Origin: Patescibacteria group bacterium
GTDB lineage: Bacteria; Patescibacteriota; WWE3; UBA101185; UBA10185
DNA: 64,000 nt
Assembly: GCA_018825365.1 (NCBI GenBank)
Contig: JAHJEV010000004.1
Coordinates: forward strand, 27,527 to 91,526
Direction: 5' to 3'
In this document: positions 5,904-60,736 of the stretch, one piece after another
How the letters are laid out: every line of letters starts with the position of its first letter
Position numbering within the stretch: the stretch's first letter is position 1
Position numbers and translations under genes: made by a program
The notes under the pieces: generated by a model
The model's database searches: none
Told to the model about the DNA's origin: nothing
What the model saw: only the letters and a program-made list of their open reading frames with translations

Positions 5904-5909
5904 AGTTGG

Positions 5910-39275: not shown

Positions 39276-39279
<4 letters not shown>

Positions 39280-42153: not shown

Positions 42154-43005
<852 letters not shown>

Positions 43006-44099
43006 TCAATATCATTAGTGAACTGCAATTAAAATGTTCGAATAAACAACAGACACACAACTACGATGCACAAACAGGAAATAAACAGAAATATAAAAAT
43101 TAATACAACAATGCCCTCAGTAAAAACTTTACCAAATATTGTCACTACGATATTTGGTAGGGTTGAAAATAACCCACAAAATACTGAAACAACTATAAAA
43201 TTATAAAATCCGAACAAAAAATACACCGAAAACTAAAAATACTCCAGCAACAAGAAAAAATCGAGTCAAAAGTATCTTATAGCCACTAAAATCTCTCTAC
43301 TTATGCTATAAGCCTACAAATTTTGACCGCATAAATTTACTATGAACCCCTACATTATTGATGGGCTTGAAAAATAAATACTCATTACTCACTAACTCAA
43401 CATTGATATAAAAAACATCTCGTAAATTATTGCAACCACAACCAACACACAAGTTAACGTTCCGGTTTCAAAATTAAGGCCGCAGAATGCCCTATTTTGA
43501 ATTTATTTGCAATTCTGGACCCAATATACCTTCAAACATAAAACACGGGATTTTAGAGGGCAAAAATCACCGCGATTTTTCAGAAAACTAAAAAAGTACC
43601 GGTGTTTCTACCGAGGCTAACAATGGGTCAATTATCTAAACAAAATAAGGAACTACTAAGATCTGAGCAATGTAAATATATATAAACAAAATTGCATATA
43701 AACTAATTTTTAATATTTTTGCCAAGTGCATTAAAAACAACCCCAACAAACGAATATTTGAATTTGAGTATTTAAATTATCCGATAAAATGCATCAGAAA
43801 ATAAAAAATTAAACCTTGTTATTTATTAACATAATAGCAACATACCCCACTCTACCAAGGTTGTTTTATGCTCCCAAGCAACGTATTTAGAATAACCATT
43901 CGAACCTTGCTTTTTATTGTAACAAAAGCAAAATGCCCCACTCTAACAAAGTAGTGTGTATACTTCTAAACCAAGGTTTTTGATACAAAACACATTTTAG
44001 AAATTATCTATAACGAACTAATAGAAAACATAGCAAAAGTGGTATGAGTAAAATCGTATCCCAAAACCTTATCAAATGTTATCACATAAAGAAAAGTAC

Positions 44100-44128
44100 T
44101 TGACATTGACACTGAATATTACTAAAAT
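44100..44128 (+). promoter_or_regulatory. perfect-consensus sigma70 promoter TTGACA-17-TAAAAT driving the giant gene
   Basis: -35 TTGACA (44100-44105), 17-nt spacer, -10 TAAAAT (44123-44128), ~55 nt upstream of the 44182 start; end of a 1.2-kb AT-rich non-coding region. Confidence 0.6.
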
Positions 44129-44181
44129 ATTTATAACATTACTAAACATCATTGTAGCAATATTTAGTAAGGTTTTTTTCA

Positions 44182-47100
44182 ATGAGCCTGCCTGCCCAAG
44201 AAAACGCACAAAGAAATAATGACACAAAGTATGACTTCCAAAGATTTGGAAGTTTAAAAGTTTCTCAAGCCGCAAAAATTTTAGGTATATCCCCTTCCTC
44301 ACTTAGACGCTTCGAAAAAGAAGAAAGAATTACCTCGGAAAGAGCCCCCGGAAATAACTATAGAACCTACAGATTGGATCTAGTAAACAGGCTAAAAGCC
44401 GAGCTACAAAACGATGGTACCAACAAACAGCTTCTGGTCAAGAGGAAAAAACTTAGAAAAACTCAGAAATACTCCCCAGAAAAAATAAATACAGGTCTAA
44501 TAAAAACCAAACCAGGGATAATACCTTCCCCAGCCCCAGTATTTAACATGGATATACCTTCGGCGCCATACCATGTCAAACCTTATGTACCAGTATCCCC
44601 CTCGCTAGAAAAACTAGACGAATCGATTAAGACAAAGGGTGACAAAGAGGAAAACTTGAACTTACCGGAGGTAGTTCCTTCATATGAAAAAATAGTCACA
44701 TACAAACCAGCAGTAGCCAAATTAAGTTTAGGCAGAGTTTTCGCCTTGATATCTACTCTCGTACTAGTATCCACAATCCTTATTTTCCCCGTGAACTTTT
44801 CAAAAGTTCTTTCAGATTTTAGATCTAAAGTTCAAAACGGACTTGTCAACGCTAAGAATCTGTCAAATGTTCTTAGTACTTTAAACTTTGGATCAAAAAA
44901 GCTAGCTGAAAAGAAATCAACTGCCCCAAGTGAACTTTTGGCAAATGTACTTGCCGCAAGTGCCCGAGTTTCAAATTACGTTTACAACATCAATATTCCA
45001 GTATTTTTCAAAAAACCAGCAACATTTGAAGACACCCTAACGGCAGAGCAGCTGGCAACTTTCAACGCCGCTATTACCACAACCAATGTAACTTTCAAAG
45101 GCACCGGTTTAATAAATAACCTTTTAGGTATTGATGTAGTAACAAAAACCACACTCGAAAGAGACTTGGATATTGACGGACAGATAACAAGCACAGGAAT
45201 GGGAGACACGGTAATAAGCAAGGGAATTATAACAGGACCGATGCTCAATTCAAACATAACATATTCCGGTAAATTTAATTTTTCAGGAACAATTGCACTA
45301 AAAGGAACAACAATTACATCAACAGCAGCCGAGCTTAATCAACTGGCAGGACTTTCATATGAAAGCGGCGGCATATTTTACGGAGACGGGACCGGATTTT
45401 ATCAGGATACTTCTTATCTGTTTTGGGACAGCACAAACAAAAATCTAGGTATAGGAACTAGTTCTCCCACTGCAACTCTAGAAATAATAAGCTCGGGAAC
45501 AGGTACCTCTACGTCAACTTTATGGACTAAGAATTCTACTGGAACAACAGGTTTATTTGTACAAAATAGTGGGAATGTGGGTGTCGGAACTACAGCCCCG
45601 GCCACAGCTTTGGAAATCGGTGGAAGCGGAAATCTAAGAATAGGAGGATTAACTGCTTTATCCGGTGTATATACAGATGCTGACAAAACCCTGGTCTCTA
45701 CCCCACCTACTTCAGGAACTTTAGGCTATTGGCAAAGAAACGGAACTTATGTTTCTCCAGCGACAATCACTGACAATGTAGGTATTGGTACCACCGCTCC
45801 TTCAGCACTTCTTGAAGTAAACGGTACCTCATGGCTTCGAGGTGGAACAGCACCTACTTCAGGTTTGTTCGTAAATTCAAGTGGCAACGTCGGCATCGGA
45901 ACAACAAACCCGGGAGCTAAACTGGACGTACGGGGAGGATTGAATACTGGAACCAATGGAACAGAATTTACAGTTTCTGACACTGGTATAGTTACTGCAG
46001 CCACCTCATTTCTAGCTCCAACTTTTGATACTGCTACCGGAGTGGCTATGAATATCGGAACTGCCACTCAAACTGCCCTCACCCTTGGTAGGGCGGGAGC
46101 AACCACAACCATTAACGGTTCCGGCTTAACGGTTGGGCCAACCGCTTGGACCGCAACTCCAACTATCTCCGGACTGATTACCGCTACCTCCGGCTTAACT
46201 GCCAATGGAGCTTTAACCGCTAACAGCACTTTCACGCTTGGAGATGATGGAGACCTCGGATCGATTGATACTTCTGACTGGAATATCACAACAACTGGAG
46301 CAATGACCGGAATTTCAGGAATTGCTAATGATGGTGCCTACACTCAATCAGGAACATCGGCTAACACTTTTACTGGAACCTCAACTTTTTCCAATGCCAC
46401 CTACTCCGCCTTTTTTACCGGTGGTAACGTAGGTATCGGCACGACAGAGCCAGGCAGCAAGTTGGAAGTTGCGGGAACCTTTACCGTTTCCGGCAGCAAC
46501 CTAACCACTCTCGGAGGCAATCTGACAGTTACCGGTACTACTTGGACAGCCACCCCGACAATTTCCGGTTTAGTAACCATGACCTCAGGTTTTGACAGCA
46601 ACGCCGCCTCAACCGTCTCTTCCTTAACCATAGATGCCAACACTGGAAATGCTCTAACTATTTCCGGAACCGGTTTTACCACTGACATTACCCTCCAAAA
46701 CGGGGAAACAATTGACAATGACACTGACGGCACAATCTTACTCACCGCTCCCACCACTAAAACTTCAGGCAATCTGTATGCGGGAACATCAGGGACAGGA
46801 ACAATCACCTCAGGTTTAATTAACGGTCAAACTATATCCTCCGCCGCTAATTTCACCGGCACCGGAATTTTTGCTTCAACTCTAACTGCTTCCAATGGCT
46901 TAACTTTAACTACCGGAGCTTTGAATTTGACATCAACTTCCGGCACAGTTAACCTAGCAACGACTTTTAACCAAGTGGGCGCTACAACCATCAACACTTC
47001 AGGCACTGCCAACACTACTATCGGCAATACCGCAGGCGGGACAATCACAATCGGTGCCGCCTCCGGAAGCGATCTTGCCTTAAATGACGCCCAATGGTCA

Positions 47101-50100
47101 ATTACCGGGGCCGGAGCGGCCAACTTTACTGGTTTAACTTCATCAGGAACAATTACCTTTTCCGGCTTGACCGCTTCAAGAGGAGTATTTACCGCTACCG
47201 GAGGGCAATTAGCTACTTCGGCTACTTCCCAATACCTAATTGACTCTCTTTCCGACGAAACAGGGTCGGGAGCTTTGGTCTTTAGTAACAGCCCGGCAAT
47301 TACCACCCCGACCATCACCACTTCAGCTACCGTGCCTTTATTAATTGGTGGTACAGCTGCCAACAGCACTTTGACTTTGAGATCCACTTCGGGTACGGGC
47401 ATAACCGGAGCTGACATTCTTTTCCAGACCGGTAACAACGGGGCTACTGAAGCCATGAGAATTTTGAACTCGGGCAATGTGGGTATTGGGACGACCAATC
47501 CACAGTATGCTCTTGAAGTAGGAGGAAGCGGGAATGTGAGAATCGGAGGACTTAGTGCCTCAATGGGAGTATATACCGATGCAAATAAGCAGCTAACTTC
47601 CACTCCTCCTACCTCCGGGGGTTTAGGATACTGGACAAGAAGTGGTACTACTCTTTGGCCTACCGCAAATACGGATAATCTAACCACTCTTGGCAACATT
47701 GGCATAGGCACCACCTCCCCCACCTCTTCTCTTCATCTTAATGCGTCTGCCCCCAGTGGCATTATATTTAATCTTGCCTATGGTGCATCCACAGTAATTG
47801 ACAACGATCTTACCGGCGCCAAGTTTAACCTTGATGACGGCACAGTCGTTGCAACCAACCAGAATATCACAGGCTTGGAGGTAAAGTTGCCAACCGTCAC
47901 CAACACCCATACAACAGGCACCAAAACGCTCAAAGGATTTTATGTAAACTTCGGAACCGGATCAGGCTTAAACCAAACCGGCGTCGGCGGCACCACCACC
48001 TACAATGCCCTTCACGTGGATCTTCCCGCCCTTACCCAAACGGCCGGAACGTTAAACATTAATGGTTTGTATGTGAACTCTCCGTCCAGTATCACAACCG
48101 GCGGTACGGCAAGCGGTCTTTATATAAACTCCACAGGAGTTAATGCAGGCGCGCTGTACGGGGTGAATGTAAGTAATATAACGGCAGGCGCGGGAACCGA
48201 ACGGGCGATTAACATAGGGAGTGGCTGGGACAGCGTTTTAGCAGTAAACGGTACCGTGATAATAAGCGGCTCGGGAGTAACCCAAACAGCCGGCGGCGGC
48301 ACCGGTTTTTCCACGTATACCAAAGGAGATGTCCTATACTCGGACGCGGCCAACTCGCTTGCTAAACTTGGCATTGGCACTGTCAATCAAGTTCTCTCCG
48401 TTACCGCAGGAGGAGTGCCGGGTTGGGGAACTATGGACGGTACAAGCTGTGTCAACTGTCTTATTAGCAACCCCACCGGAGATCAAATCATTGCTCCTAC
48501 CGGACAGGGTACGACAGGACTAGTTGTTCGCCAGACCTCAACCTCCTCTCCTACCGATGATATTTTTGCTGTTACCAATAGCGCCGGTGATAATAAATAT
48601 TTTTATGTTGACTACGCGGGCGTTGTCAATATCCCAAGTATCGGCTCCTCCAGCGGAGACCAGCTAACTATTGAACCAGGAACAGACAAATACGCCCTTA
48701 AACTTCTGGGCACCAATGTGGCGGCAAACAGCCTTCAGCTTATTGACAGCTACAACACTTCGGGCACCATTTTTGATCTTGACTACCCAGCGGCAAGAAC
48801 GCTTTCAGGCGCACTTGTTGGTATGGATATTGACCTTTCCACCAATCTAACAGTAACAAACCAAAGCGTAACCGCTCAAAAAATTACTTTACCCACTTTT
48901 ACCAATACAAATACCACAGGTACCAAGTCGTATTTGGGTATGCAAATTGCTCCCCCGGGAGCTGGCGGTGTTAACCAAAATGGTATTGGTGGAACAAGCG
49001 AGTACATTTTGGCGGATCTTACCATGCCTGCTCTTACCCAAACAGCAGGAACGCTTAATGCCTACGGGGTCAAAATCATAACACCTTCGTCCATCACCAC
49101 CGGCGGTACTGCTTATGGGGTTAATATAAACGCAAGCGGAGTCGGAGCAGGCACGCTTTACGGGATGAATGTAAGTAATATAGCGGCAGGCGCGGGAACC
49201 GAACGGGCGATAAACATCGGCACAGGCTGGGATTATGGTATCTACTCGGAAACCACAGGCAACTCCTACTTTGCAGGCAGTGTTGGCATCGGAACAACAA
49301 ATCCCACCGCAGCTCTTGATGTTGCTGGAGGAATAAAAGCAACTACATTTAATGGCAATATTATCTCCACAGGTACTGGAACTTTAACACTGGGGGCTTC
49401 AAAAACTTTAACTGTTAATGATTCCACTGTTTTGAATACTAATACCGTTACCTTCGGAGGAACAGAAATATTAACTTTAACCGCAGGAAAGAATGTAACC
49501 TTTGCTGATTCCTTTACCACCTCGGGATCAAATTCTCTCACACTAACAACTACCGGGTCAACCAATACAACCCTGCCAACCACAGGAACTCTTGCTACCT
49601 TAGCCGGAATAGAAACATTCAGCAGCAAAACATTTAGCGGAAATACATACTTTCCTGGATCTGGTATCTGGGATGCAGGAGGCAACATCGGCATCGGGAC
49701 GACAGCTCCGAAGAACAAGCTAGATGTATTTGGTGCTATGGCTATAGGGTCATACGCAGGTGTGAATACGGCACCGAGCAACGGGATGATAATATCTGGC
49801 AACGTCGGCATCGGGACGACGGGACCGGGGGCGACCCTGCACGTTCAAAAAGGTGCTGGTGTAACGGCGGTATCAGACAGCAACGCAGTGTTTCAACTCA
49901 CATCTGATGGTAATGCATCAAATATGTGGTTTAACATTAAGACAGGAGCCAATGGTGGAACCAATGGGACATTTGGATTTGCTGAAGCTGGGACTATTAA
50001 GGGCGGAATATTATGGGACGTGGCAAACGCCTCATTTAATTTATCTAGTGACGTAAACACTACAGCGACTTCAAGGCAAGTGATTATTAAAGCAGGCAAC

Positions 50101-53100
50101 GTCGGCATCGGGACGACGGGTCCCGTGGCCAATTTACACATTGTTGGCTCAACCTTGTTTGGCTCCTTAGCCGTGGCCGACAAGGTCACTGGCGGAAACA
50201 TCGGTACCGCCGCTGCCACCGTTGATATATATACCAGCTTCAATCTGTCCCAGGCCACCGCGGGCCAAACCATTACCCTGCCCGATCCAACTAATACCAC
50301 GGCCGGCAGATTAGTCTATCTTTCCAATACCGGTTCGGCCACCTTTACTTTTTACAACTCCACGGTTAAAGTCGGCGATACCACCGCGGCCATTTGGGAC
50401 AGTGACTCCTGGAACCTGGCCGGCGGCGGCGGTTTGGCTCAAGGCACGGTTGATAATGCTACTTTAAGATGGAACAACTCAACCACTCAGTGGGTGGAAA
50501 ATACCAGTATTCTTACCGCGTTAAATCCAACAGCCGTAGGTTCTTATGGGTTGTCAGTTGGCAATTCTGGCGCTGTTGCCGGAACCGGATATGGCATTTA
50601 CACCACAAAGACCGGGGGCTCAACTACTAATGTAGCTTTGTATGCATCGGCATCCGGTGGCGCTGCAAATTATGCTGCCATTTTTGATTCAGGAAATGTC
50701 GGCATCGGGACAACTGCTCCCACATATAAACTGGATACCCAACTGGCAAGTAATGGAATAATTGCAAGATTTTCAGCAACAGATGCAAGTTTACTTATAG
50801 GAGCAGATGCTAGTGGTGGATATATACAACCAGGAACAGTAGATAAAACTACAATATATCAATCAAACGGCACATCAGCAGTAGTAACTGTAGACGCTAA
50901 CAAAGTAGGTATAGGAACGACTGCTCCATCAACAAAATTAGATGTGAATGGCACGATTACCAGCCAGACCGGAGCTGTAAACTCCAATGTGGCTGACTCT
51001 TCAACCGCCATCGCCTTTTTACTGGCATCCAATAATACTTTATCCACCCAGGGCGCCAAACTCCTTTCTTTGAAAAACGCCTCAACGGAAAAGTTTTACA
51101 TTGACAAAGACGGCAATCTCTATACGGCCGGCACCATTCTGGCCGGCAATGGCACCGGCATACTGATGATTAACAAATCCGGCGGCACGGTCGCTAAGCG
51201 CAGTTTAGTCGTCATTGACATCACCACCAACTCCGCCTTTGCCACTACCACCACCGCCTACGCCAAATCCAGTTTTGGCGTGATTACCGGCGTCGGGCTT
51301 GGAGTAGCCTATGACGCCGATGGCGACGGCGCGTGCGACGCCGAAGATGTCTGCATGGTGGCGGTTGGCGGCGAAGTGGAAGTTCTTCTGACCAACGCGT
51401 CTACCGCCGTTAAAGGCGACTATATTTATACCTCGGCCACGGCCGGTTCGGGCGTGTCCAGCGCCAAGCAGTTTGACGGCCTTATCGGCATCGTCAGCAA
51501 CACGGCCGGCTCTGCTTCCGGCTATGGCAAAATGATTTTTAAAGTCCAGCCCCAGGTCTCCGGCTCGCAGTTTTTAACTAAAGAAGACACAGCTTTGGCT
51601 AATGGCGGTTATGTGGAGATAGTCCACAATCAGAGCACTAATGATGTGGTGACCAATGGGTGGGTGTACAACACAACCACCAGTAAATGGGAAATAGTTG
51701 GTGATAGTGGGGATGCAATTGGTGGAACAGTAACATATAAAGATGGATATACCATCCATACATTTACCAGTAGCGGAACCTTCACGCCAGTTAGTGCTGG
51801 AAATGTTGAAGTTTATGCTTGGGGTGGTGGCGCAGGTGGTGGGTATAACGCCGGTGCCGGAGGTGGTGGAGGAGCAGCTAATGGTACAGTAACAGTTGCG
51901 GCATCTTCTTATGTTGTTACTGTTGGTGGCGGTGGATTATCTAGGGCACCGGATGCTGGTCCTGGACCAGCAGTTGTTGGTGGAGGTGGTTTAGCAGGTA
52001 ATCTTGGTTATGGTGGTCAAGGCGGAGGTTTATCTGGAATTTTTATAGGATCTTCTTCTCAAGTCAATGCTCGCTTAATGGCTGGTGGGGGCGGTGGTGG
52101 TGCTTACGAAGGTGCTAATGGCGGTGCTGGAGGCGGCACTAATGGCGTTGCTGGTGGCAACGGTTTAGATGCTGGTGGTGGTGGAGGAACACAATCTGCT
52201 GGTGGCACATCTGTTTCCTCTACCGGTTCTGCGCTACAGGGAGGTTCTTCTGGTGCTCAAGGTGATGGTGGCGGTAGCGGTGGTGGAGGTGGTGGTTATT
52301 GGGGTGGAGGAGCTGGTAGTAATACCAATCCTGGTTCTGCTGGTGGTGGCGGTGCAGGATTTTATAACCCAACTTATGCTTCCTCTGTAACATTAACTGC
52401 AGGTTCTGGAACAACACCTGGTGATTCAGGTAATTCTTTAAGAGGTTCTGCTGGTAATGGAGGTGCGGCTGGTAATAATGCAGGTACAGCCGGCATTGTC
52501 ATTGTTAGATATCTGACGAATTCGTTGAGCGCTTTCAAAATCACCCAGCAGGATACCAATACGGTTCGGCTTTATAATTATTCCGGCGCGACGCAATATG
52601 TCAGGTTAAATGTTATTCCTTCCGGCGGCGGCGGTTCGCCGGGCGGCGGCGCCGGGCTCTACACCAATAACAACGCCTCCGTTGCCAACGGCTCCTACAT
52701 CGACGTGGCGCACAACCAGAACACCGCCGACCTGGTAAGCAACGGGTGGATTTACAATACAGCTACTAGCAAATGGGAACAGATTGACAAAGATAGTAGT
52801 GATGCCACTGGCGGAACAATAACATATAGCGGTGGATATACCATTCATACTTTTACAAGTAGCGGAACATTCACACCACCAAATAATGGAAATGTTGAAT
52901 ATCTTGTGGTTGGAGGAGGAGGAGGAGGTCATACGGGAGGTGGTGGGGCGGGTGGATATTTGACTGGAACAGATTCATTATCCGCAACCTCTTACAATGT
53001 TATAGTTGGAGCAACAGTGGGCGCATATACAACTGGAAACAATAGTTCATTCAATGGCAAAATAGCTTCTGGCGGAGGTCTTGGAGGAAATGTAGGTGAA

Positions 53101-56076
53101 GCAGGGGGAGATGGAGGTTCGGGTGGTGGTGCGGGTGCGGGTGGTGGTGTGTATGCACATGGTCACGCAACTGGTACTCCGAGTAGCCAAGGTCATGATG
53201 GGGGCATAAACTATAATAGCTCTCCTTATCCTGCTGGTGGTGGCGGTGGCGCAGATACAGTAGGTTCAGATGGAACGTCTAATGGAGGTGGAAATGGGGG
53301 CGCAGGACTAACATCAAGTATTAGTGGAAGTTCAGTAGGTTATGCAGGTGGGGGTGGGGGTTATAGTCAAGATACAAAACCTCCAGGAACTGCGTCCCAT
53401 GGAGGAGGAGCAGGAGTAGGGCAAACGGGCACTCCCAATGCTGGCACACCTAATACTGGCGGAGGCGGCGGCGGCGGACAGAATGGTGGTGCAGGTGGTT
53501 CCGGCATTGTCATTGTCAGATATTTAACCAATTCTTTAAGTGCTTTCAAAATCACCCAGCTCGATACCAACACGGTACGGCTCTACAACTACTCCGGTAC
53601 TACTCAAAACTTACGGCTTGATGTCATTACCGGAGGATTGGGCCGAAACGCCGGCACCGTGTCTTTGGCGCCGGCTGCCGCCGACGTTGACAGCCAGGAT
53701 AACTCCAACAGCATCTGGATCAACAAAACCGGAGCCGGGGGCTTGCTGCTCAAGCTCCAATCTGCGGCTGCGGATGTTCTCACTTTGGCCAAGAGCGGCC
53801 TGATGACCTTGGCCGGCAGTTTCGTTCCCGCTACCAACGATACCTATGATTTGGGTTCGGACGCCTTGAGATGGCAGTCTGCCTACATCGGGCCCGGGAC
53901 AGTGCACATTGGCACCTCCACCGCTGATGAGTACACTATGTCATATGACACAACTAACAACCGCTTGGGTTTCAATGTCAACGGTTCGGGCGATGCGGAA
54001 ATCGTCTTTGATTCCTCCGGCAACGTCGGCATCGGGACGACGGGACCAGAATCTAAACTACATGTTATGTTTAATAGCGCAGGTACAATCACAGGTTTTT
54101 CCGACGCATTAATTGTTGAAAACAACGCGAATGCTTATTTGAACCTCATTGGTTCAACTTCTGGAATAAAGGCGATTACTTTTGGAGACCCAACTGCCGG
54201 TGTGGTAGATGGTCAAATCACCTACAATGCCCTCGCTACTGACATGCTTGACTTTCGTGTTGCTGGTAATTCTGTAAAGATGGTGATTGACTCTTCCGGC
54301 AACGTCGGCATCGGGACGACGACGCCTGCAGCTAGAACACACATAGTCAATACTACAGCTACCGCACTAAGGTTGGATGTAAATGATGCATTTTCTTATG
54401 CGGAGTTTTATACTGGTGCAACATATCGTGGAAATATAACATATCAGGCGGCAAGTACTGCTTTGCGATTGACTGCTGGAACAGCACAGAACTTACTCTT
54501 AACTGCTGCGGATAGTAATGATAAAGGGATATTTATAAAAACAGACGGCAATGTCGGCATCGGTACAACAGCTCCGAAGAACAAGCTAGATGTATTTGGT
54601 GCTATGGCTATAGGGTCATACGCAGGTGTGAATACGGCACCGAGCAACGGGATGATAATATCTGGCAACGTCGGCATCGGGACGACGGGGCCGGGGGGCA
54701 AGTTAAGCATTTATGATACGTCAGCCGGTGCTAACGATAGGGTACAGATAGTCAGCGATCTAAGTTCGAGCGTGGACCAGTTGGTACTCCATCATTATGG
54801 GACGGCAGGAACTCAGCTTGCGTCATTTTGGAGAGGCAGGGGCACTTTCTCTTCACCAACAGCTTTATCGAATGGTGATGCAATCGGTCAATTTAATTTC
54901 GTAGGATATGACACAAGTAACACGGCTCAGACAGGGGCAGGATTCGGGGCAGTAGTAGATGCGGCTCCAGGAGCTGGAAGCGTTCCTATTGCAATAAGAT
55001 TTTTAACAGGTACCACAGGAGGTGGGACGGAACGGGTCAGAATTGATAGTACCGGCAACGTCGGCATCGGGACGACGGGGCCAGTGAGCTCGCTAGAAAT
55101 AAAAGGTCCGAACACTGTAAATACTCCGCGCTTAACGCTCAACCAACTTTATAACGCAGGAGCGTCGGCGTGGGGTATTGATTTCACTCGCACCTACGAC
55201 ACCGGTGGTGACGGACAAAACGCGGGGTACATTCGTATTGGCCGTGCCGGGGGAACCTCAAATTCGGGTATGTTTTTTGGGCTTGGTGACCAAGGTACAG
55301 TCGCAGATAGAATGACTATTCTTCCAAGCGGCAACGTCGGCATCGGGACGACAGGTCCAGGGTATACATTAACAGTTGCAGGTACTGCCTGGGTTACAAG
55401 CGGCGCCTGGTCTGGTTCGGATGTTAGATGGAAAGAAAATATTCAGCCTATAGCAGGAGCCTTGGACAAAGTACTGCAACTCTCCGGAGTTTTCTATAAC
55501 TGGAGAAAAGACGAGTTTCCAGAAAATAAATTTGATGACAAAACTCACTTGGGGTTAATTGCTCAGGATGTAGAAAAAATTGTTCCCGAACTGGTAACCA
55601 CAGGACCAGACGGCTATAAAGGTCTTGATTATAATGGATTAGCGCCTCTTTTAATTGGGGCCGTACAGGAACAGCAGGGGCAAATCTCGCTGCTGTCAGG
55701 ACAGCTGGTAAGCTTATCAAATATCGTCCGTGTTGAAGGCTCGTGCGTTACCGGTGACACATTGCTTCCCATCCGCCGCCGACGCAAAAGTCTAAGTGGT
55801 CTGGAATCCGAGGACGACAATGGGTTATTTGATTACCTGTTGATCCGTATCGATGAAATACTACCTGGCGATGAAGTCTCGTCCTTAAATGAGTTTACAG
55901 GCTCTCTAGAATGGCATAAAATAAATGCCTCGATGGATATGGATATTAAGGAAGTTTTTGAGCTTACAACCAAATCAGGAAAAGTAATCAGGACAACAGC
56001 CAAGCATCCTTACTTAACTTTGTTGGAAGATAAATTGGAAGGTAACCCTGTAGTTAGTAAAGAAGGAATAAAATAA
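44182..56076 (+). CDS. giant (3964 aa) cell-surface protein: N-terminal HTH, single TM, tail-fibre-like 'GNVGIGTTxP' repeat array, tandem Gly-rich modules, peptidase-S74 intramolecular chaperone domain, C-terminal split-intein N-fragment
   Basis: Single uninterrupted ORF. HTH 'LKVSQAAKILGISPSSLRRFEKEERI' (aa 22-50). TM 'RVFALISTLVLVSTILIFPV' (aa ~184-204). Many 'SGNVGIGTT(A/N/G)P..KL(D/E)V' repeats. S74 motif 'SDVRWKENIQPIAGALDKVLQLSGVFYNWRKDE...LIAQDVEKIVPELV'. Final 110 aa 'CVTGDTLL...VIRTTAKHPYLT...' are intein blocks A and B. Confidence 0.85.
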   Translation: MSLPAQENAQRNNDTKYDFQRFGSLKVSQAAKILGISPSSLRRFEKEERITSERAPGNNYRTYRLDLVNRLKAELQNDGTNKQLLVKRKKLRKTQKYSPEKINTGLIKTKPGIIPSPAPVFNMDIPSAPYHVKPYVPVSPSLEKLDESIKTKGDKEENLNLPEVVPSYEKIVTYKPAVAKLSLGRVFALISTLVLVSTILIFPVNFSKVLSDFRSKVQNGLVNAKNLSNVLSTLNFGSKKLAEKKSTAPSELLANVLAASARVSNYVYNINIPVFFKKPATFEDTLTAEQLATFNAAITTTNVTFKGTGLINNLLGIDVVTKTTLERDLDIDGQITSTGMGDTVISKGIITGPMLNSNITYSGKFNFSGTIALKGTTITSTAAELNQLAGLSYESGGIFYGDGTGFYQDTSYLFWDSTNKNLGIGTSSPTATLEIISSGTGTSTSTLWTKNSTGTTGLFVQNSGNVGVGTTAPATALEIGGSGNLRIGGLTALSGVYTDADKTLVSTPPTSGTLGYWQRNGTYVSPATITDNVGIGTTAPSALLEVNGTSWLRGGTAPTSGLFVNSSGNVGIGTTNPGAKLDVRGGLNTGTNGTEFTVSDTGIVTAATSFLAPTFDTATGVAMNIGTATQTALTLGRAGATTTINGSGLTVGPTAWTATPTISGLITATSGLTANGALTANSTFTLGDDGDLGSIDTSDWNITTTGAMTGISGIANDGAYTQSGTSANTFTGTSTFSNATYSAFFTGGNVGIGTTEPGSKLEVAGTFTVSGSNLTTLGGNLTVTGTTWTATPTISGLVTMTSGFDSNAASTVSSLTIDANTGNALTISGTGFTTDITLQNGETIDNDTDGTILLTAPTTKTSGNLYAGTSGTGTITSGLINGQTISSAANFTGTGIFASTLTASNGLTLTTGALNLTSTSGTVNLATTFNQVGATTINTSGTANTTIGNTAGGTITIGAASGSDLALNDAQWSITGAGAANFTGLTSSGTITFSGLTASRGVFTATGGQLATSATSQYLIDSLSDETGSGALVFSNSPAITTPTITTSATVPLLIGGTAANSTLTLRSTSGTGITGADILFQTGNNGATEAMRILNSGNVGIGTTNPQYALEVGGSGNVRIGGLSASMGVYTDANKQLTSTPPTSGGLGYWTRSGTTLWPTANTDNLTTLGNIGIGTTSPTSSLHLNASAPSGIIFNLAYGASTVIDNDLTGAKFNLDDGTVVATNQNITGLEVKLPTVTNTHTTGTKTLKGFYVNFGTGSGLNQTGVGGTTTYNALHVDLPALTQTAGTLNINGLYVNSPSSITTGGTASGLYINSTGVNAGALYGVNVSNITAGAGTERAINIGSGWDSVLAVNGTVIISGSGVTQTAGGGTGFSTYTKGDVLYSDAANSLAKLGIGTVNQVLSVTAGGVPGWGTMDGTSCVNCLISNPTGDQIIAPTGQGTTGLVVRQTSTSSPTDDIFAVTNSAGDNKYFYVDYAGVVNIPSIGSSSGDQLTIEPGTDKYALKLLGTNVAANSLQLIDSYNTSGTIFDLDYPAARTLSGALVGMDIDLSTNLTVTNQSVTAQKITLPTFTNTNTTGTKSYLGMQIAPPGAGGVNQNGIGGTSEYILADLTMPALTQTAGTLNAYGVKIITPSSITTGGTAYGVNINASGVGAGTLYGMNVSNIAAGAGTERAINIGTGWDYGIYSETTGNSYFAGSVGIGTTNPTAALDVAGGIKATTFNGNIISTGTGTLTLGASKTLTVNDSTVLNTNTVTFGGTEILTLTAGKNVTFADSFTTSGSNSLTLTTTGSTNTTLPTTGTLATLAGIETFSSKTFSGNTYFPGSGIWDAGGNIGIGTTAPKNKLDVFGAMAIGSYAGVNTAPSNGMIISGNVGIGTTGPGATLHVQKGAGVTAVSDSNAVFQLTSDGNASNMWFNIKTGANGGTNGTFGFAEAGTIKGGILWDVANASFNLSSDVNTTATSRQVIIKAGNVGIGTTGPVANLHIVGSTLFGSLAVADKVTGGNIGTAAATVDIYTSFNLSQATAGQTITLPDPTNTTAGRLVYLSNTGSATFTFYNSTVKVGDTTAAIWDSDSWNLAGGGGLAQGTVDNATLRWNNSTTQWVENTSILTALNPTAVGSYGLSVGNSGAVAGTGYGIYTTKTGGSTTNVALYASASGGAANYAAIFDSGNVGIGTTAPTYKLDTQLASNGIIARFSATDASLLIGADASGGYIQPGTVDKTTIYQSNGTSAVVTVDANKVGIGTTAPSTKLDVNGTITSQTGAVNSNVADSSTAIAFLLASNNTLSTQGAKLLSLKNASTEKFYIDKDGNLYTAGTILAGNGTGILMINKSGGTVAKRSLVVIDITTNSAFATTTTAYAKSSFGVITGVGLGVAYDADGDGACDAEDVCMVAVGGEVEVLLTNASTAVKGDYIYTSATAGSGVSSAKQFDGLIGIVSNTAGSASGYGKMIFKVQPQVSGSQFLTKEDTALANGGYVEIVHNQSTNDVVTNGWVYNTTTSKWEIVGDSGDAIGGTVTYKDGYTIHTFTSSGTFTPVSAGNVEVYAWGGGAGGGYNAGAGGGGGAANGTVTVAASSYVVTVGGGGLSRAPDAGPGPAVVGGGGLAGNLGYGGQGGGLSGIFIGSSSQVNARLMAGGGGGGAYEGANGGAGGGTNGVAGGNGLDAGGGGGTQSAGGTSVSSTGSALQGGSSGAQGDGGGSGGGGGGYWGGGAGSNTNPGSAGGGGAGFYNPTYASSVTLTAGSGTTPGDSGNSLRGSAGNGGAAGNNAGTAGIVIVRYLTNSLSAFKITQQDTNTVRLYNYSGATQYVRLNVIPSGGGGSPGGGAGLYTNNNASVANGSYIDVAHNQNTADLVSNGWIYNTATSKWEQIDKDSSDATGGTITYSGGYTIHTFTSSGTFTPPNNGNVEYLVVGGGGGGHTGGGGAGGYLTGTDSLSATSYNVIVGATVGAYTTGNNSSFNGKIASGGGLGGNVGEAGGDGGSGGGAGAGGGVYAHGHATGTPSSQGHDGGINYNSSPYPAGGGGGADTVGSDGTSNGGGNGGAGLTSSISGSSVGYAGGGGGYSQDTKPPGTASHGGGAGVGQTGTPNAGTPNTGGGGGGGQNGGAGGSGIVIVRYLTNSLSAFKITQLDTNTVRLYNYSGTTQNLRLDVITGGLGRNAGTVSLAPAAADVDSQDNSNSIWINKTGAGGLLLKLQSAAADVLTLAKSGLMTLAGSFVPATNDTYDLGSDALRWQSAYIGPGTVHIGTSTADEYTMSYDTTNNRLGFNVNGSGDAEIVFDSSGNVGIGTTGPESKLHVMFNSAGTITGFSDALIVENNANAYLNLIGSTSGIKAITFGDPTAGVVDGQITYNALATDMLDFRVAGNSVKMVIDSSGNVGIGTTTPAARTHIVNTTATALRLDVNDAFSYAEFYTGATYRGNITYQAASTALRLTAGTAQNLLLTAADSNDKGIFIKTDGNVGIGTTAPKNKLDVFGAMAIGSYAGVNTAPSNGMIISGNVGIGTTGPGGKLSIYDTSAGANDRVQIVSDLSSSVDQLVLHHYGTAGTQLASFWRGRGTFSSPTALSNGDAIGQFNFVGYDTSNTAQTGAGFGAVVDAAPGAGSVPIAIRFLTGTTGGGTERVRIDSTGNVGIGTTGPVSSLEIKGPNTVNTPRLTLNQLYNAGASAWGIDFTRTYDTGGDGQNAGYIRIGRAGGTSNSGMFFGLGDQGTVADRMTILPSGNVGIGTTGPGYTLTVAGTAWVTSGAWSGSDVRWKENIQPIAGALDKVLQLSGVFYNWRKDEFPENKFDDKTHLGLIAQDVEKIVPELVTTGPDGYKGLDYNGLAPLLIGAVQEQQGQISLLSGQLVSLSNIVRVEGSCVTGDTLLPIRRRRKSLSGLESEDDNGLFDYLLIRIDEILPGDEVSSLNEFTGSLEWHKINASMDMDIKEVFELTTKSGKVIRTTAKHPYLTLLEDKLEGNPVVSKEGIK
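49705..49824 (+). repeat. ~120-nt perfect intragenic direct repeat, copy 1 (copy 2 at 54571-54690)
   Basis: Identical stretch 'gctccgaagaacaagctagatgtatttggtgctatggctatagggtcatacgcaggtgtgaatacggcaccgagcaacgggatgataatatctggcaacgtcggcatcgggacgacggg' at both sites. Confidence 0.8.
54571..54690 (+). repeat. ~120-nt perfect intragenic direct repeat, copy 2
   Basis: See copy 1; 4.87 kb apart in the same reading frame, encoding 'APKNKLDVFGAMAIGSYAGVNTAPSNGMIISGNVGIGTTGPG'. Confidence 0.8.
55417..55743 (+). other. peptidase S74 / intramolecular chaperone auto-processing domain (sub-feature of the giant CDS)
   Basis: 'SDVRWKENI...FYNWRKDEFPENKFDDKTHLGLIAQDVEKIVPELV' matches the tail-spike/endosialidase C-terminal chaperone domain (SDxRxK Ser-Lys dyad region). 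Confidence 0.7.
55744..56073 (+). other. split-intein N-terminal fragment (Int-N; Hint blocks A and B), DnaE-split-intein-like
   Basis: Block A 'CVTGDTLL' at the extein/intein junction (…VEGS|C); block B 'GKVIRTTAKHPYLT', close to the cyanobacterial DnaE Int-N block B 'GSVIRATSDHRFLT' as recalled; ORF stops 20 aa later, as in natural Int-N. Confidence 0.75.
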
Positions 56077-56201
56077 ATGAGTAAATTTTTAAACAGTTTT
56101 TTAACTAAATATCTCACGATTACAAGAGGAAGTGCCAAAATTTCCCAAACTAGTGAGATTGGGACCTCGCCAATCCGTGAGATGGGGGAGACTAAAAATC
56201 T

Positions 56202-56780
56202 ATGAAAATTAACCAAAATATGAAAAAATTCCAAAAAACTCTGGAATTAAAAGGCAAAACGGCTGTCCTCATTGATTGGGCTAACGTTCACGGATGGGCA
56301 GAATTGGGTCACTCTGAAGTTAATCTAAAAAAGTTGTTTAAATACTTAAGAGGGTACAAAAAGATTAAAGCAATAAATCTATATTTCGGTAAGGATACTC
56401 ATCCAAAATCAAAAAAGTTTTTAGGTGAAGCGAAGAAAATAGGTTTTAAGGTAATCACAAAACCAGTTAAATATATCAAGGTGGCTGTATTCCAAAATAA
56501 ACCAATTTTCCGACGAAAGTGCGACTTTGATATGGAAATTTGTATTGATATTCACAAACATTTAAGCCAAAATTATGATAGTTTCATTTTCTTTTCTGGC
56601 GATGGGGACTTTGAGCCTCTTTATAGACTATTAATCGAAAGACATAAACAGGTTATTGTAATATATGGACAAGGCCATCTGGGAAGGGAGATTTACTCAA
56701 TAAAACAGGGGTTATATAAACTCGATATTAATAAGTTGGGGTCAGTAAAAAATGACCCCCCGGTTTCCCGGAGGGCGTGA
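56202..56780 (+). CDS. NYN-domain (LabA/YacP-like) protein
   Basis: 'KTAVLIDWANVHG' N-terminal acidic motif and 'FFSGDGDFEPL' NYN signature; 192 aa. Confidence 0.7.
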   Translation: MKINQNMKKFQKTLELKGKTAVLIDWANVHGWAELGHSEVNLKKLFKYLRGYKKIKAINLYFGKDTHPKSKKFLGEAKKIGFKVITKPVKYIKVAVFQNKPIFRRKCDFDMEICIDIHKHLSQNYDSFIFFSGDGDFEPLYRLLIERHKQVIVIYGQGHLGREIYSIKQGLYKLDINKLGSVKNDPPVSRRA

Positions 56781-56906
56781 TTAAAAGTATGTTAACAAAA
56801 CTAGCCAGAAAAGTCAAATTAGGAAAGATCGGCAAAGACCGCTTAACTCAGGAATTTATACCTGGCGATCAGCGATTCGAGCCGATTAGTAGGTAAAGGA
56901 TAACGT

Positions 56907-58232
56907 ATGTCTAAATTTTTATCAAATATTTTTAATTTAATGAAGGCCCATAAACCTGGGGTCCCCGACCTCGCTAAATCGCCTATAGGTGGTGATGTAC
57001 CAACTACACCGAACAAGCAAGACGGACATCTCACCTCCGCTCAGGGCAAGCCCATAATGGACTCTTTTGCCTGCCCTTACTGCGCAAGCAAACACTTTGT
57101 CAGAAGAGGTTTTAGACAGAAAAAAATGGAAAAAGTCCAGCTTTATCTTTGCCTGGAGTGCAACAAAACCTTTACCCAGCATATAACCCGCGGCAAACAC
57201 TATCCTTTACCGGTTGTTTTCGATGCTATCAGCACTTATAATCTTGGGTATTCTCTGGAAGAAACCTGCAGGATAATTAATAGCCGCACCGCCGGCGTTA
57301 CGTCAGCAGTTTCCGAGGCAGGTCCCGCACTTTCGGCATCGACTTTATCAAATTGGCTTAATGAAACATCAGAGCTCTGCCGATTTGAGCGCATGCGCGA
57401 ATATGCCCTGAAAAAATACTCGCCAGAAAATATGGTTGTTACCGCAACTCTCGCCCACCGACAGCTTTACCGCTACCGCTTCCATAGAGCCAAATGCGAA
57501 CTTATCATCACTGAAGATTTTAAACACCACCGCTTCGGGCCTTTGCAGGAATTTCTAGAAATGGTGCCCAGTGAGTGTCCGCACCAATATTTCCAAGAAG
57601 GCTTAAGGGCCAGTGAAGTGCCTTTGACCTTTTCCAAAACCCAAATGATCGTCAGAAGCAAGCAAAACTACGCCACTGCGCTTGCCACCTTTATCCTGCA
57701 GTCGGTCAAGGATAGAAAACTGCGCCATGACGCTATACAAAAATTTATGCTGGCCAACGACACGGTAACTGTCGCCACTGAAGTACCGGTTTACTTAACC
57801 CACGATGATTTGGAGCATTTGCAGACACAGCTAGGGTTTGAAATATATGACTCCCCCATTAAAGGAGCCCGTTCGGCCGCCTTGGAAGTGTGTACCGACC
57901 TGCCAAAATTAATCACTGGCCACATTGACATACTGCAAATAAGAAACGGCCAGATTCATATTTTGGATTTTAAACCTGACGCCGCAAAAGAACAGCCGAT
58001 TGAACAGCTGACTTTGTATGCTATGGCGCTGTCCAGACTTACCGGTTTAAGATTATTCGAGTTTAAATGCGCTTGGTTTGATGAAAAAGACTATTTTGAA
58101 TTTTATCCATTACATGTTTTACTTAAAACAAAGAAAAGTCAGAGACGCCGAAAAGTCTATACCATGGAAGGAGTTTATAAAATTAATCAGGATGAAAGAA
58201 AGGTAACAGAAATTAAACCTATACACCTATGA
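56907..58232 (+). CDS. Zn-ribbon + PD-(D/E)xK nuclease-fold protein (candidate free-standing homing endonuclease)
   Basis: N-terminal 'CPYCASKH...CLECNKTF' C4 ribbon; C-terminal 'ITGHIDILQIRNGQIHILDFKPD' (D...D/ExK-like core); locally higher GC than the genome. Confidence 0.55.
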   Translation: MSKFLSNIFNLMKAHKPGVPDLAKSPIGGDVPTTPNKQDGHLTSAQGKPIMDSFACPYCASKHFVRRGFRQKKMEKVQLYLCLECNKTFTQHITRGKHYPLPVVFDAISTYNLGYSLEETCRIINSRTAGVTSAVSEAGPALSASTLSNWLNETSELCRFERMREYALKKYSPENMVVTATLAHRQLYRYRFHRAKCELIITEDFKHHRFGPLQEFLEMVPSECPHQYFQEGLRASEVPLTFSKTQMIVRSKQNYATALATFILQSVKDRKLRHDAIQKFMLANDTVTVATEVPVYLTHDDLEHLQTQLGFEIYDSPIKGARSAALEVCTDLPKLITGHIDILQIRNGQIHILDFKPDAAKEQPIEQLTLYAMALSRLTGLRLFEFKCAWFDEKDYFEFYPLHVLLKTKKSQRRRKVYTMEGVYKINQDERKVTEIKPIHL

Positions 58233-58645
58233 CCTATCAAAAATCATACAGCCCTAAAAGACCGGTGAAAAGCTTCCAGGATTTGGAAGTGTACCAAAAG
58301 TTATTGGCTCTCTCAGTTGCTGTAGCCAAAAGAGTCAAATCCGAAAAAGTGACTGCCATTGCCTTAGATTTGCCGGTTAAGATAGCCACAGCTCACTCAT
58401 CGAGATTTGGTGATCAGACAAAGGCAATTTACGCTCTGGATGAAGTAATGCTTAATTGCAATCTGCTTGTTGTTTATTTGGAACAATACCGGGATATTGA
58501 AAATCCGTCTGCTAAAGAGGCAGAGAAGATTGAATCTGAATTTTTTGAGGAGCAGATTAAAAGTCTTTTGTCAGTCAGAATGAAAATTTTACATTTACAA
58601 AATTCGTGGAAGAAATTCGCCAAAGAATATGCCAAACAAAAATAA
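58229..58645 (+). CDS. four-helix-bundle protein (23S rRNA intervening-sequence protein family, TIGR02436-like)
   Basis: 'FQDLEVYQKLLALSVAVAKRV...' matches the four-helix-bundle/IVS protein N-terminus (FxDLxVWQKA); 138 aa; 4-nt overlap with upstream gene. Confidence 0.7.
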   Translation: MTYQKSYSPKRPVKSFQDLEVYQKLLALSVAVAKRVKSEKVTAIALDLPVKIATAHSSRFGDQTKAIYALDEVMLNCNLLVVYLEQYRDIENPSAKEAEKIESEFFEEQIKSLLSVRMKILHLQNSWKKFAKEYAKQK

Positions 58646-58883
58646 CAAGAAAAATTTAATAGACACCCACCCTGTAGGCAGGATCTTTAATATTGGCAAG
58701 GAAAAGGCCGTCTGGAAAAGAGTAACCGAGCTAAAACCCGGGGTAAAAATTGCTGTCGAAAAAGATGGAAACCTCGCTTGGGATGAAATTGTTGAAATAA
58801 AATCCGTCGGCCTCGAAAGAGTCTGGGACATTGAAGTTGAAGGCACGCATAACTTTGTCGGCAACGGTATCATCGCCCACAAT
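58629..58883 (+). other. Int-C portion (blocks F/G) of the split intein
   Basis: 'VWDIEVEGTHNFVGNGIIAHN' similar to the DnaE Int-C '[22 protein letters not shown]' as recalled; splice junction at 58883/58884. Confidence 0.75.
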
Positions 58884-60638: not shown

Positions 60639-60736
60639 ACTACTCAAAAAGCCACTGAATAGAAAACTTGGTTTTTGGTCTACTTTACTACTCATCACTT
60701 ATATTTAAGGTTGAGATAGTAAAATCTCCCGCAGAC

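Follow-up and report, generated by a model that had tools for sequence, protein, structure and literature searches.

The DNA analysed here, a stretch of 64,000 nucleotides referred to as the window, belongs to a Patescibacteria metagenome-assembled genome (MAG), a genome of the candidate phyla radiation (CPR; GCA_018825365.1, contig JAHJEV010000004.1), which agrees with the CPR-like cell proposed in a preliminary description of it. On its plus strand lies a single open reading frame (ORF) of 3964 aa, correctly delimited in that description, which encodes a MerR-like helix-turn-helix (HTH) head, a disordered linker, a transmembrane (TM) helix, a juxtamembrane (JM) module, a long shaft of fibre repeats and a peptidase S74 domain (Table 1). 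The description took this ORF for the whole gene. Its last 110 aa, however, are one half of an intein and not fibre, so that S74 is not the end of the protein and the ORF is not a complete gene; the sequence continues, past a three-gene nuclease cassette, in a second ORF whose start lies 2.5 kb downstream of the end of the first. Positions 44182-60638 are probably one giant cell-surface fibre gene that a split class-1 intein has fractured, and the two pieces of its product would be trans-spliced into a chain of 4438 aa. The ORFs of the array abut or overlap (56076/56077, 56202/56205, 58229/58232 and 58629/58645), and no terminator-like site was found on the plus strand between them.

Table 1. 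Features of the fibre locus in the window, followed by small genes and second inteins at related loci (L numbers, in the coordinates of those loci)
Feature	Position	Strand	Description
Promoter candidate, sigma-70-like	44100..44128	+	TTGACA-17-TAAAAT; 11/12 match, best in the spacer, 53 nt before the ATG
N-piece ORF	44182..56076	+	3964 aa: N-extein aa 1-3854 and N-intein aa 3855-3964
MerR/BldC-like winged HTH with long helix, cytoplasmic	44242..44466	+	aa ~21-95; Pfam MerR_1 at aa 26-72
Pro/Lys-rich linker	44470..44706	+	aa ~97-175; variable between relatives; predicted disordered
Single TM helix, type-II signal anchor	44728..44799	+	aa ~183-206; equivalent TM position in relatives
JM ectodomain module, conserved	44914..45294	+	aa ~245-371; kept in P0052-P0055
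Fibre shaft	45439..55376	+	19 GNVGIGTTxPxxKLxV copies, several internal duplications; ~3,500 aa
Two tandem Gly-rich modules	51700..53880	+	each ~1.0-1.1 kb; Gly_rich_2 / phrog_2295
S74 intramolecular chaperone/autoprotease, complete	55417..55743	+	from SDVRWK at aa 3746 to a helical tail ending at aa 3854
N-intein half	55744..56073	+	110 aa; Cys1 = Cys3855 in CVTGDTLL; block B TAKH
42-aa ORF	56077..56205	+	MSKFLNSFLTKYLTITRGSAKISQTSEIGTSPIREM; matches N-termini of the L002, L005, L003 and L007 nucleases
NYN-domain gene, free-standing	56202..56780	+	192 aa; Pfam NYN E 5.8e-21
PD-(D/E)XK nuclease	56907..58232	+	441 aa; IS1-type zinc ribbon and RecB/Cas4-type PD-(D/E)XK
138-aa helical partner protein	58229..58645	+	no described family; stop overlaps start of the C-intein ORF
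C-piece ORF	58629..60638	+	669 aa: 85-aa C-intein and 584-aa C-extein
C-intein half	58629..58883	+	85 aa; blocks F and G; ends ...THNFVGNGIIAHN; own ATG at 58629
C-extein	58884..60638	+	584 aa; Thr+1, fibre motif TFLNDLVGIGTTNP; C-terminal domain ends ...LDISWIIVDRKD
Companion small genes	L019 1121-1555; L021 1129-1548, 3468-4028; L007 7296-7763; L022 1179-1562, 3366-3749; L025 5410-5763		
Two-intein loci	L007 405-584, 6881-7249; L046 151-483, 5378-6649; L071 2534-3151, 5705-6031		

Each half is recognised by intein models. The N-half scores 26.2 with TIGR01445 (cut-off 24.5) and holds its block B T-x-x-H as TAKH at N-intein residues 85-88, within TTAKHPYL, while the C-half scores 39.5 with Pfam Intein_splicing PF14890 (cut-off 35.8) and 35 with TIGR01443 (cut-off 15.6), and ends in VWDIEVEGTHNFVGNGIIAHN, directly followed by Thr+1, with the terminal His-Asn and the block-F Asp/His present. 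Of the Pfam intein profile, positions 10-74 align where the giant ORF ends, and positions 112-155, with a score above gathering, where the ORF at 58629 starts; the gap between them, 75-111, coincides with the split and is the canonical endonuclease-insertion site, and a stop follows N-intein residue 110. Joined in silico, the halves match the Npu DnaB mini-intein (4o1r) at E 1e-16 in two stretches and the Ssp DnaB intein (1mi8) at E 1e-12, pass both NCBIfam models (TIGR01445 and TIGR01443), and contribute all catalytic positions between them: Cys1, T-x-x-H, block-F Asp/His, His-Asn and Thr+1. Judged by these residues, this is a canonical class-1 intein, naturally split, in the layout of a fractured gene. 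In the window the N-extein ends ...NIVRVEGS and the C-extein begins TFLNDLVGIGTTNP, and the spliced product would read VEGS-TFLNDLVGIGTTNPADTTLNLSSTSPSSINMLDVDGVIR; the intein-less target proposed for the window is ...GGNGTNGGNATHGGNACNAC..., with flanks coding KLHVEGS/TYISGNLGIGTT. Trans-splicing activity is predicted from the intact residues, from the selection on the halves and from their co-occurrence, both described below.

The C-extein provides another line of evidence for a fractured gene. Over 200-460 aa it aligns with the C-termini of contiguous, HTH-headed giant proteins, P0189 (E 6e-84) and P0215 (7e-74) as well as P0250, P0225, P0209, P0188, P0177 and P0211; in P0188, P0211, P0225 and P0250, S74 is followed by this C-terminal domain in one chain with no intein. 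By these alignments the C-extein is the canonical C-terminus of the same protein family. The C-piece contains no hydrophobic segment (maximum Kyte-Doolittle value over 19 residues, KD19, 0.95). With no export signal, the C-piece has no way to reach the outside by itself, so that splicing would have to come before the C-terminus is translocated.

With the first 373 aa as query, an exhaustive search yielded 143 cluster representatives of this family, whose order of parts is one to six MerR-like HTH domains, TM helix, JM module (at aa ~140-430 of many giant relatives), fibre shaft, often S74, then ~190-310 more residues and, at the conserved C-terminal end, '...(F/I)(D/N)W(W/L)(I/V)(I/V)'. In a word-index search with the N-terminus, the giant ORF itself was not among the matches. 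Contiguous members range from 196 to 7185 aa, and uninterrupted relatives of 1.2-7.2 k aa have the full architecture; the contiguous giants include P0177 (6147 aa), P0190 (4767), P0246 (4651), P0189 (3756) and P0209 (3434), together with P0215, P0250, P0211 and P0225. The HTH is fused to the JM module (44) and/or to a chain of at least 1000 aa (20, six of them with no detectable JM module) in at least 64 cluster representatives, the longest of 7185 aa, and two or more copies of the head stand in tandem in 50. A further 86 representatives (median 151 aa) showed the HTH only, a class in which fragments at contig ends and free-standing genes are indistinguishable. Five mini members (P0220, P0243, P0247, P0307 and P0308, 196-460 aa) have two tandem HTH domains, a TM helix and a short ectodomain with no shaft, and share the C-terminal end '...F(D/N)W(L/W)I(I/V)N'. 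Head and C-terminal domain are the constant parts of the family, and the shaft is optional.

The same gene order is found in independent Patescibacteria genomes (L002, L003/L004, L005/L006 and L007), where a large ORF ending in an N-intein is followed by a PD-(D/E)XK nuclease of 414-504 aa, a partner of 131-168 aa, sometimes an NYN gene, and an ORF that opens with a C-intein; the split arrangement is also present in GCA_043824185.1 and JGI 3300015370. From a set of 83 non-redundant nuclease loci, 70 had enough downstream sequence and 59 had both flanks. A gene for the 138-aa protein follows the nuclease in 69 of the 70, and both intein halves are present in 19 of the 59, just one in none and neither in 40; about 38 of 50 C-piece homologues open with a C-intein. 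Where neither half was found, a fibre-like ORF lay upstream of the cassette in 13 of 21 loci inspected (five of the 13 end in the canonical C-terminal motif), and thus the cassette often, not always, adjoins a fibre gene. In comparisons of lineages with the split arrangement, the N-intein gave a ratio of nonsynonymous to synonymous substitutions (dN/dS) of 0.11-0.24, the C-intein one of 0.22-0.28, the nuclease 0.07 (leaving out the L008 pair, whose coordinates were out of frame) and the 138-aa partner 0.06-0.16, values which indicate that all parts are maintained by purifying selection.

At most loci with both junctions readable, the N-extein ends '...GNVGIGTTxPxxKLHVEG(S/N/H)' and the C-extein starts 'T(Y/F)(I/L)xGN(L/V)GIGTTxP...'. 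The intein therefore adjoins the fibre's own repeat motif, which accounts for the presence of two inteins in some fibre genes (L007, L046 and L071); in these, one contiguous mini- or NYN-intein accompanies one split intein. P0020 is a 389-aa middle piece consisting of C-intein, extein and N-intein, and, together with the two-intein genes, it implies fibres assembled from three pieces. S74 lies inside the C-piece in L003, L011, L024, L031, L051, L059, L061 and L071, and splicing is needed there to join the shaft to its chaperone. A subclass of C-halves reads THNFVAGH(F/L/M)(I/L)(D/N) (L005 10064-10240, L012 ~9891, L013 ~3211, L015 ~3185, L041, L046 ~4046, L059 ~6300 and L071 ~9279) and has neither His-Asn nor a +1 nucleophile, yet a normal-looking N-half upstream; these could be decaying inteins, or halves kept just for non-covalent docking or N-terminal cleavage.

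Between the halves, the nuclease, a candidate homing endonuclease, matches Pfam PDDEXK_1 and NCBIfam zinc-ribbon models with no PHROG match. All 33 homologues in an alignment share its RecB/Cas4-type motif, D341, D354-x-K356 and Q367-x-x-x-Y371, without variation. Its AlphaFold2 (AF2) model is poor (predicted local distance difference test, pLDDT, 57), and its Foldseek neighbours, all PD-(D/E)XK nucleases at E >= 1e-2, lend weak support. No Pfam, NCBIfam, PHROG or PDB match was obtained for the 138-aa protein, and profiles of both proteins run against PDB sequences returned a zinc-ribbon match and noise, leaving no relative of solved structure detectable by sequence. The start FxDLxVYQ of the 138-aa protein had brought a 23S-rRNA-IVP/Avd four-helix bundle to mind, an assignment that found support from no tool and is not claimed.

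The NYN gene of the window seems to interrupt the nuclease gene near its 5' end: the 42-aa ORF matches the usual nuclease N-terminus of other genomes, and the window nuclease now opens with a partly duplicated 'MSKFL...' N-terminus. In the contiguous inteins of P0033, P0050, L046 and L070 the NYN domain fills the endonuclease slot (P0033 and P0050 read N-intein, NYN, C-intein), and elsewhere it follows the 138-aa gene; it thus behaves as a separately mobile module. At four loci the nuclease shares one stop-to-stop frame with the N-intein half (L048 3-1493, L050 1-2124, L061 2-2854 and L071 728-8692), with the 138-aa gene and the C-half staying separate, and these fusions look like intermediates between free-standing and intein-embedded endonucleases.

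The nuclease family comprises more than 2072 clusters, 50-79% identical. A reference-genome scan placed it in Vogel-, Gottesman-, Shapiro-, Roizman-, Morani-, Yanofsky-, Sung-, Taylor-, Uhr- and Kuenenbacteria, in Paceibacterota, in WWE3 and in contigs labelled Saccharibacteria; one cluster is named Pacebacteria. It was absent from 2.9 million viral contigs, the same patterns having given 106 matches in genome contigs; the head gave one weak match among the viral contigs. Contigs with cassette and fibre genes that are labelled Gammaproteobacteria (L008, L013, L019, L020, L025, L038 and L085) or Bdellovibrionales (L027 and L033), all uncultured MAGs, are probably mis-binned or mislabelled CPR, the alternative being transfer outside the CPR. 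Cassettes outside inteins often stand beside small genes such as one for a ~140-aa protein ending '...HFWSVIPAWRKDRFG', which is also found between the intein halves of L007; other companions are four-helix-bundle-like proteins ('SATSVGANY.EA') and PemK/MazF-like ORFs, and the surroundings of the fibre genes look like a mobile-element neighbourhood.

The N-extein is the fibre that the preliminary description had recognised, with fewer repeats than the dozens it reported: the motif G[IV]GT[TSV]xP occurs 19 times in the N-piece and once in the downstream ORF. The two tandem Gly-rich modules are evident as DNA repeat pairs (families D7 and D8; 51703-51840 with 52792-52929 and 52479-52617 with 53490-53628) and match Pfam Gly_rich_2 (E 6.7e-15) and PHROG phrog_2295 (E 7e-48). 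The last 620 aa of the N-extein match PHROG tail-fibre families (E 2e-44 and 1e-33) and many S74-terminated fibres, and PDB sequence matches include the S74 tip of a phage long tail fibre, MYRF and mosaic adhesive trimer (MAT) fibres of Bdellovibrio, one of which, Bd2133 (8ond), is matched by the shaft motif. Pfam Peptidase_S74 covers aa 3746-3806 (E 8e-17 to 9e-18), and the S74 region aligns to 6f45, the fibre tip of phage S16, to within 4 residues of its end, as well as to 7dc3, 8ond and 8ojn.

The S74 domains of MAT fibres are defined by an SDxxxK catalytic motif, and their self-cleavage was shown by experiment (PMC10769870). SDVRWK fits this motif; the extreme C-terminal position of S74 is not found in the window, where the intein and, after splicing, 584 aa would follow. 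Self-cleavage at Ser3746 after folding of the trimer is predicted. Together the matches support a protein that resembles a phage tail fibre and is predicted to be borne on the cell surface, where, on the analogy of phage fibres and the MAT proteins of Bdellovibrio, it would most likely mediate contact with a host or partner cell. Within the giant ORF, a 156-nt segment at 49676-49831 recurs 96% identical at 54542-54697, 4.9 kb away, and a further tandem duplication of ~1 kb is seen at 48091-48230 and 49093-49232 (81%). These internal repeats indicate recent intragenic duplication or gene conversion, and are also a hazard for short-read assembly.

At the other end of the chain, the MerR-type HTH, the Pro-rich linker and the single TM helix of the preliminary description were all borne out, and no stop or frameshift separates the head from the rest in the window. 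The head alone matches Pfam MerR_1 (E 1.4e-7, score 31.9 against a cut-off of 21.6) and MerR (E 4.6e-7, 30 against 28.2). In the AlphaFold model of the N-terminal segment, a check that the description had proposed, aa 21-95 form a confident beta-alpha-alpha-hairpin-long-helix domain (pLDDT 86-95; the single long helix spans aa 65-95), followed by the disordered linker and a helix at aa 183-201 (pLDDT 85-92) within the TM segment, the only one in the N-piece with KD19 above 1.6 (maximum 2.54). Its best Foldseek neighbours are DNA-bound BldC, Pukovnik Xis, SoxR, RacA (a chromosome anchor) and CueR, with template-modelling scores to the target of 0.72-0.79 (for BldC over residues ~21-75, with a root-mean-square deviation of 1.8 A); the accompanying E-values, ~1e-2, are weak because the domain is small. 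Across 15 relatives with 28-49% identity, residues S28, A30, S39, R42, R43, E45, S52, R54, Y60, R61 and L71 do not vary. No C-terminal coiled-coil dimerisation or effector domain of the classical MerR regulators, which bind promoters with a spacer of 19-20 bp, is present, and the disordered linker and TM helix come after the long helix instead.

From fold and conserved residues it seems somewhat likelier that the head binds DNA than that it does not; for what purpose is a separate question, to which a membrane-tethered regulator or a DNA anchor would be the most likely answer. The preliminary description called a DNA-binding domain on such a protein odd, and that judgement stands, yet the feature is conserved family-wide rather than a one-off. 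It had also asked whether the HTH is ever a separate ORF: beside the fused and the HTH-only representatives counted above, head and shaft were seen apart at one locus only, L001, where an HTH-TM-JM ORF of 493 aa (2136-3617) overlaps a 1224-aa ORF that continues the fibre (3562-7233). That break, ~490 aa in and after the TM helix, could be genuine or could reflect a frameshift or sequencing error. The intein-split fibre genes of L002 (2217-7802) and L005 (3842-7549) are headed by Phage_int_SAM_1, an integrase SAM-like domain, in place of the MerR-like HTH, and hence different DNA-binding folds have been recruited as fibre heads.

Upstream, positions 42973-44181 form a spacer of 1209 nt with ~31% GC and no convincing ORF; a 65-aa, extremely hydrophobic ORF within it, at 43029-43226 on the minus strand, may be a small membrane protein or chance. 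The promoter of the preliminary description is there, as an 11/12 match; promoter-like sites in the spacer are no more numerous than in shuffled sequence (6 against 6.7 +/- 2.7). Since the promoter lies so close to the ATG, what was said to be a leader, 1.2 kb long and AT-rich, is instead a spacer upstream of it. Rfam at gathering thresholds detected two tRNAs in the whole window and nothing in the spacer. The locus has cellular genes on either side, with an ATPase of the ATP synthase alpha/beta family upstream (39276-40781) and DUF4143 ATPases downstream; virion genes were not seen among the window neighbours, and the upstream synteny is shared with the relative L001. The giant gene has 47-53% GC against 35-40% in its surroundings. 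The excess sits at the second codon position (0.56, with 0.31-0.41 in the neighbouring genes), where it reflects Gly/Ala/Thr content, whereas the GC of position 3 (GC3) is 0.41 against 0.34-0.40, and foreign origin was therefore rejected as its cause. Downstream, the last 164 nt of the C-extein ORF (60484-60647) recur 93% identical at 61998-62161, 1.5 kb away, as a 43-aa ORF, with a third partial copy (82%) another 1.4 kb on at 63554-63608. After each copy of the fibre 3' end comes a DUF4143/AAA_14 ATPase gene on the minus strand (60737-61930 and 62210-63472), and this tandem duplication of ~1.5 kb, 'fibre 3' end + ATPase', suggests that the fibre 3' end is a recombination hotspot.

On the anatomy observed, the following chemistry and cell biology may be proposed. 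The whole array would be co-transcribed and the intein halves would associate in the cytoplasm, where trans-splicing via Cys1, T-x-x-H, the block-F Asp, His-Asn and Thr+1 would yield the 4438-aa chain before its C-terminus is translocated. The chain would then be anchored N-in/C-out, trimerise from the C-terminal S74 region and cleave itself at Ser3746. Nuclease, 138-aa partner and NYN protein would be selfish passengers that spread or maintain the element by cutting intein-less or cassette-less alleles.

Several points weigh against a trans-spliced gene of this kind. Splicing itself is predicted here from the genes, its precedence over Sec export of a 4,000-aa chain is a scenario that we infer, and Thr is a less common +1 nucleophile. 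The C-halves of the THNFVAGH(F/L/M) subclass end without the terminal His-Asn, so that their loci cannot splice canonically; the window copy is canonical. No uninterrupted ('empty') homing site was found with a strict regular expression in all fetched proteins and loci (a looser pattern gave one closely spaced motif pair, in P0209), and homing and co-conversion of flanks are accordingly steps that we infer. The full 11.9-kb ORF was seen intact only on the window's own contig, and the NCBI contig begins inside the ORF, which also holds near-identical internal repeats. Finally, S74 is already complete in the N-piece, and a mature fibre could form without the C-piece.

This last point leads to the view that the locus is a dead remnant, in which the cassette destroyed a contiguous intein, the N-piece works alone, the N-intein stub is lost together with S74, and the 669-aa ORF is unused or independent. 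The close agreement of the N-piece with the end of 6f45, to within 4 residues, weakens the need for splicing in the window gene, and everything after Ser3746 would be cleaved off anyway, leaving the same mature fibre spliced or not, which is the main argument for a remnant; that some related C-halves have no His-Asn, and that two thirds of the cassette copies lie outside inteins, point the same way. A remnant is nonetheless unlikely, given that every catalytic residue has been kept, that the halves stand at dN/dS 0.11-0.28 and occur together or not at all (19 loci with both, 0 with one), that the C-extein is an intact 584-aa ORF homologous lengthwise to the C-terminus of contiguous relatives, that a C-piece with no export signal would have no route to the site of its homologues, and that splicing is needed at the loci with S74 in the C-piece. 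An artefact of assembly or sequencing, with a spurious stop after the N-intein and a chimeric join to the cassette, might be suspected in a MAG with a repeat-rich gene, a 156-nt internal repeat at 96% identity and an NCBI contig broken within the giant ORF; with the identical arrangement in independent assemblies, and the order N-half, cassette, C-half repeated in 19 or more further genomes from many lineages of the CPR, it is scarcely credible. The assignment of the locus to a prophage or phage, as a tail-fibre gene with homing endonucleases, could draw on the PHROG tail-fibre matches, on the raised GC and on the fact that fractured genes have been described mainly in phage (PMC2677866), but an N-terminal HTH with a TM anchor is not a feature of virion fibres, the neighbours are cellular with no virion genes seen and synteny with L001 upstream, the GC excess lies at codon position 2 with GC3 near that of the neighbours, and the nuclease is absent from the viral contigs, in which the head has its one weak match; a phage gene is very improbable.

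Much the same applies to a system like the polymorphic toxins (reviewed in PMC3482391), in which a terminal Hint domain would release or exchange a C-terminal effector and the downstream ORFs would be alternative tips. A Hint domain near the C-terminus of a giant surface protein, and a downstream ORF whose 3' end is repeated twice further downstream, would suit such a system; set against these, the intein is canonical, with Cys1, His-Asn and Thr+1, and closest to DnaB inteins, the C-extein has no toxin family match and is an ordinary fibre C-terminus, and no immunity-like gene follows, all of which makes a toxin locus highly unlikely. Another alternative concerns the head only, which might not bind DNA and might serve as a cytoplasmic handle for protein interaction or assembly, for example in export, positioning or anchoring of the fibre base. 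Its want of the effector/dimerisation domain of classical MerR proteins, the weak Foldseek E-values of ~1e-2 and the Phage_int_SAM head on other fibre genes of the family could be so understood, although the integrase SAM-like head is itself a DNA-binding fold. The MerR signature, including R42, R43, R54, Y60 and R61, is moreover invariant in the 15 relatives, DNA-bound BldC, Xis, SoxR, RacA and CueR come closest to the head in structure, and the tandem heads of 50 representatives resemble the multimeric DNA binding of BldC, so that a mere handle, while it may be entertained, is doubtful. The reading of the locus as one fibre gene fractured by a trans-splicing intein is the one retained in what follows.

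In the fractured genes described by Dassa et al. (2009, NAR; PMC2677866), a host gene is broken at the endonuclease slot of an intein, and the layout is that of the window: N-extein with N-intein, nuclease gene or genes, and C-intein with C-extein, on one strand with short gaps or overlaps. A free-standing endonuclease between the halves and on the same strand is found here too (56077-58645, all on the plus strand). The hosts of that study are DNA synthesis and repair enzymes and its nuclease a single GIY-YIG or Vsr-like protein; in the window the host is a giant structural fibre, the target a repeated structural motif rather than a catalytic site, and the insert a cassette of two or three genes (PD-(D/E)XK, 138-aa protein, sometimes NYN). 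The 2009 loci also appear to be mainly of phage, whereas the window lies on a CPR chromosome and its nuclease is absent from viral contigs. In the library searched, which is incomplete, nothing was found on NYN in inteins or on inteins in CPR surface or fibre-like proteins.

Among known fibres, the MAT fibres of Bdellovibrio bacteriovorus, which lives on bacteria, are likewise phage-like fibres borne by a cell with an S74 that carries SDxxxK (Caulton et al. 2024, Nat Microbiol, PMC10769870; 8ond, 8ojn); Bd2133 gives direct sequence matches, and the MAT capping-loop motif V-G-G/N-x-x-x-P-x-x-x-L corresponds to the GNVGIGTTxPxxKL of the window. MAT proteins, at ~1,000 aa, open with a signal peptide and then a beta-rich, conserved N-domain of ~130 aa, whereas the window protein would be of ~4,400 aa with an HTH, linker and TM anchor, a conserved region of ~200-600 aa after S74, and an intein-split gene. 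K1F endosialidase, T5 pb1 and the S16 fibre (6f45) share S74, SDxxxK and shaft repeats with it; unlike them it is predicted to be membrane-anchored and not part of a virion, has a non-terminal S74 and is 3-10 times longer. In MYRF (7dc3), too, a single chain holds a DNA-binding domain, a TM helix and a trimerising S74 autoprotease of phage origin, with S74 cytosolic, between DNA-binding domain and TM helix, so placed that cleavage frees a transcription factor. In the window the TM helix lies between HTH and S74, and S74 cleavage therefore cannot free the head. The DNA-binding fold of MYRF is Ndt80-like, that of the window MerR-like. BldC, the excisionases and RacA resemble the window head in being small, MerR-like and devoid of an effector domain; they are soluble or tethered to the pole by a coiled coil, and no member of this group carries a giant extracellular fibre joined to it by a TM helix.

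If the proposal is true, a cell-surface structure, and not an enzyme of replication or repair, depends on trans-splicing, which raises the question of how splicing and export are ordered. The cassette represents a very large mobile-element family of the CPR, so far unannotated, which spans over a dozen candidate phyla and numbers more than 2,000 protein clusters; it holds two candidate new types of homing endonuclease and dozens of mutually diverged, naturally split inteins, both of use in protein ligation and genome engineering. In gene calling and annotation, these proteins will be cut short and their pieces mislabelled. A broader picture, offered tentatively and more likely to need revision than to hold in full, is that Patescibacteria build giant contact fibres by trans-splicing separately encoded pieces, that the element family homes into the repeat motif by means of two nuclease modules that have not been described for inteins before (the zinc-ribbon RecB/Cas4-type PD-(D/E)XK enzyme with the 138-aa protein as obligate partner, and NYN), that the fibre genes are modular and can be exchanged among lineages, and that the head links contact to DNA. 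If so, the head would be a transmembrane link, either a contact-sensing regulator or a DNA anchor, whose oligomeric state would be set by S74 trimerisation outside the cell. With a CPR-wide family of proteins of 200-7,185 aa that bear a cytoplasmic, putatively DNA-binding head, the long-standing question of host recognition and response in ultra-small, episymbiotic bacteria would become testable on a named protein.

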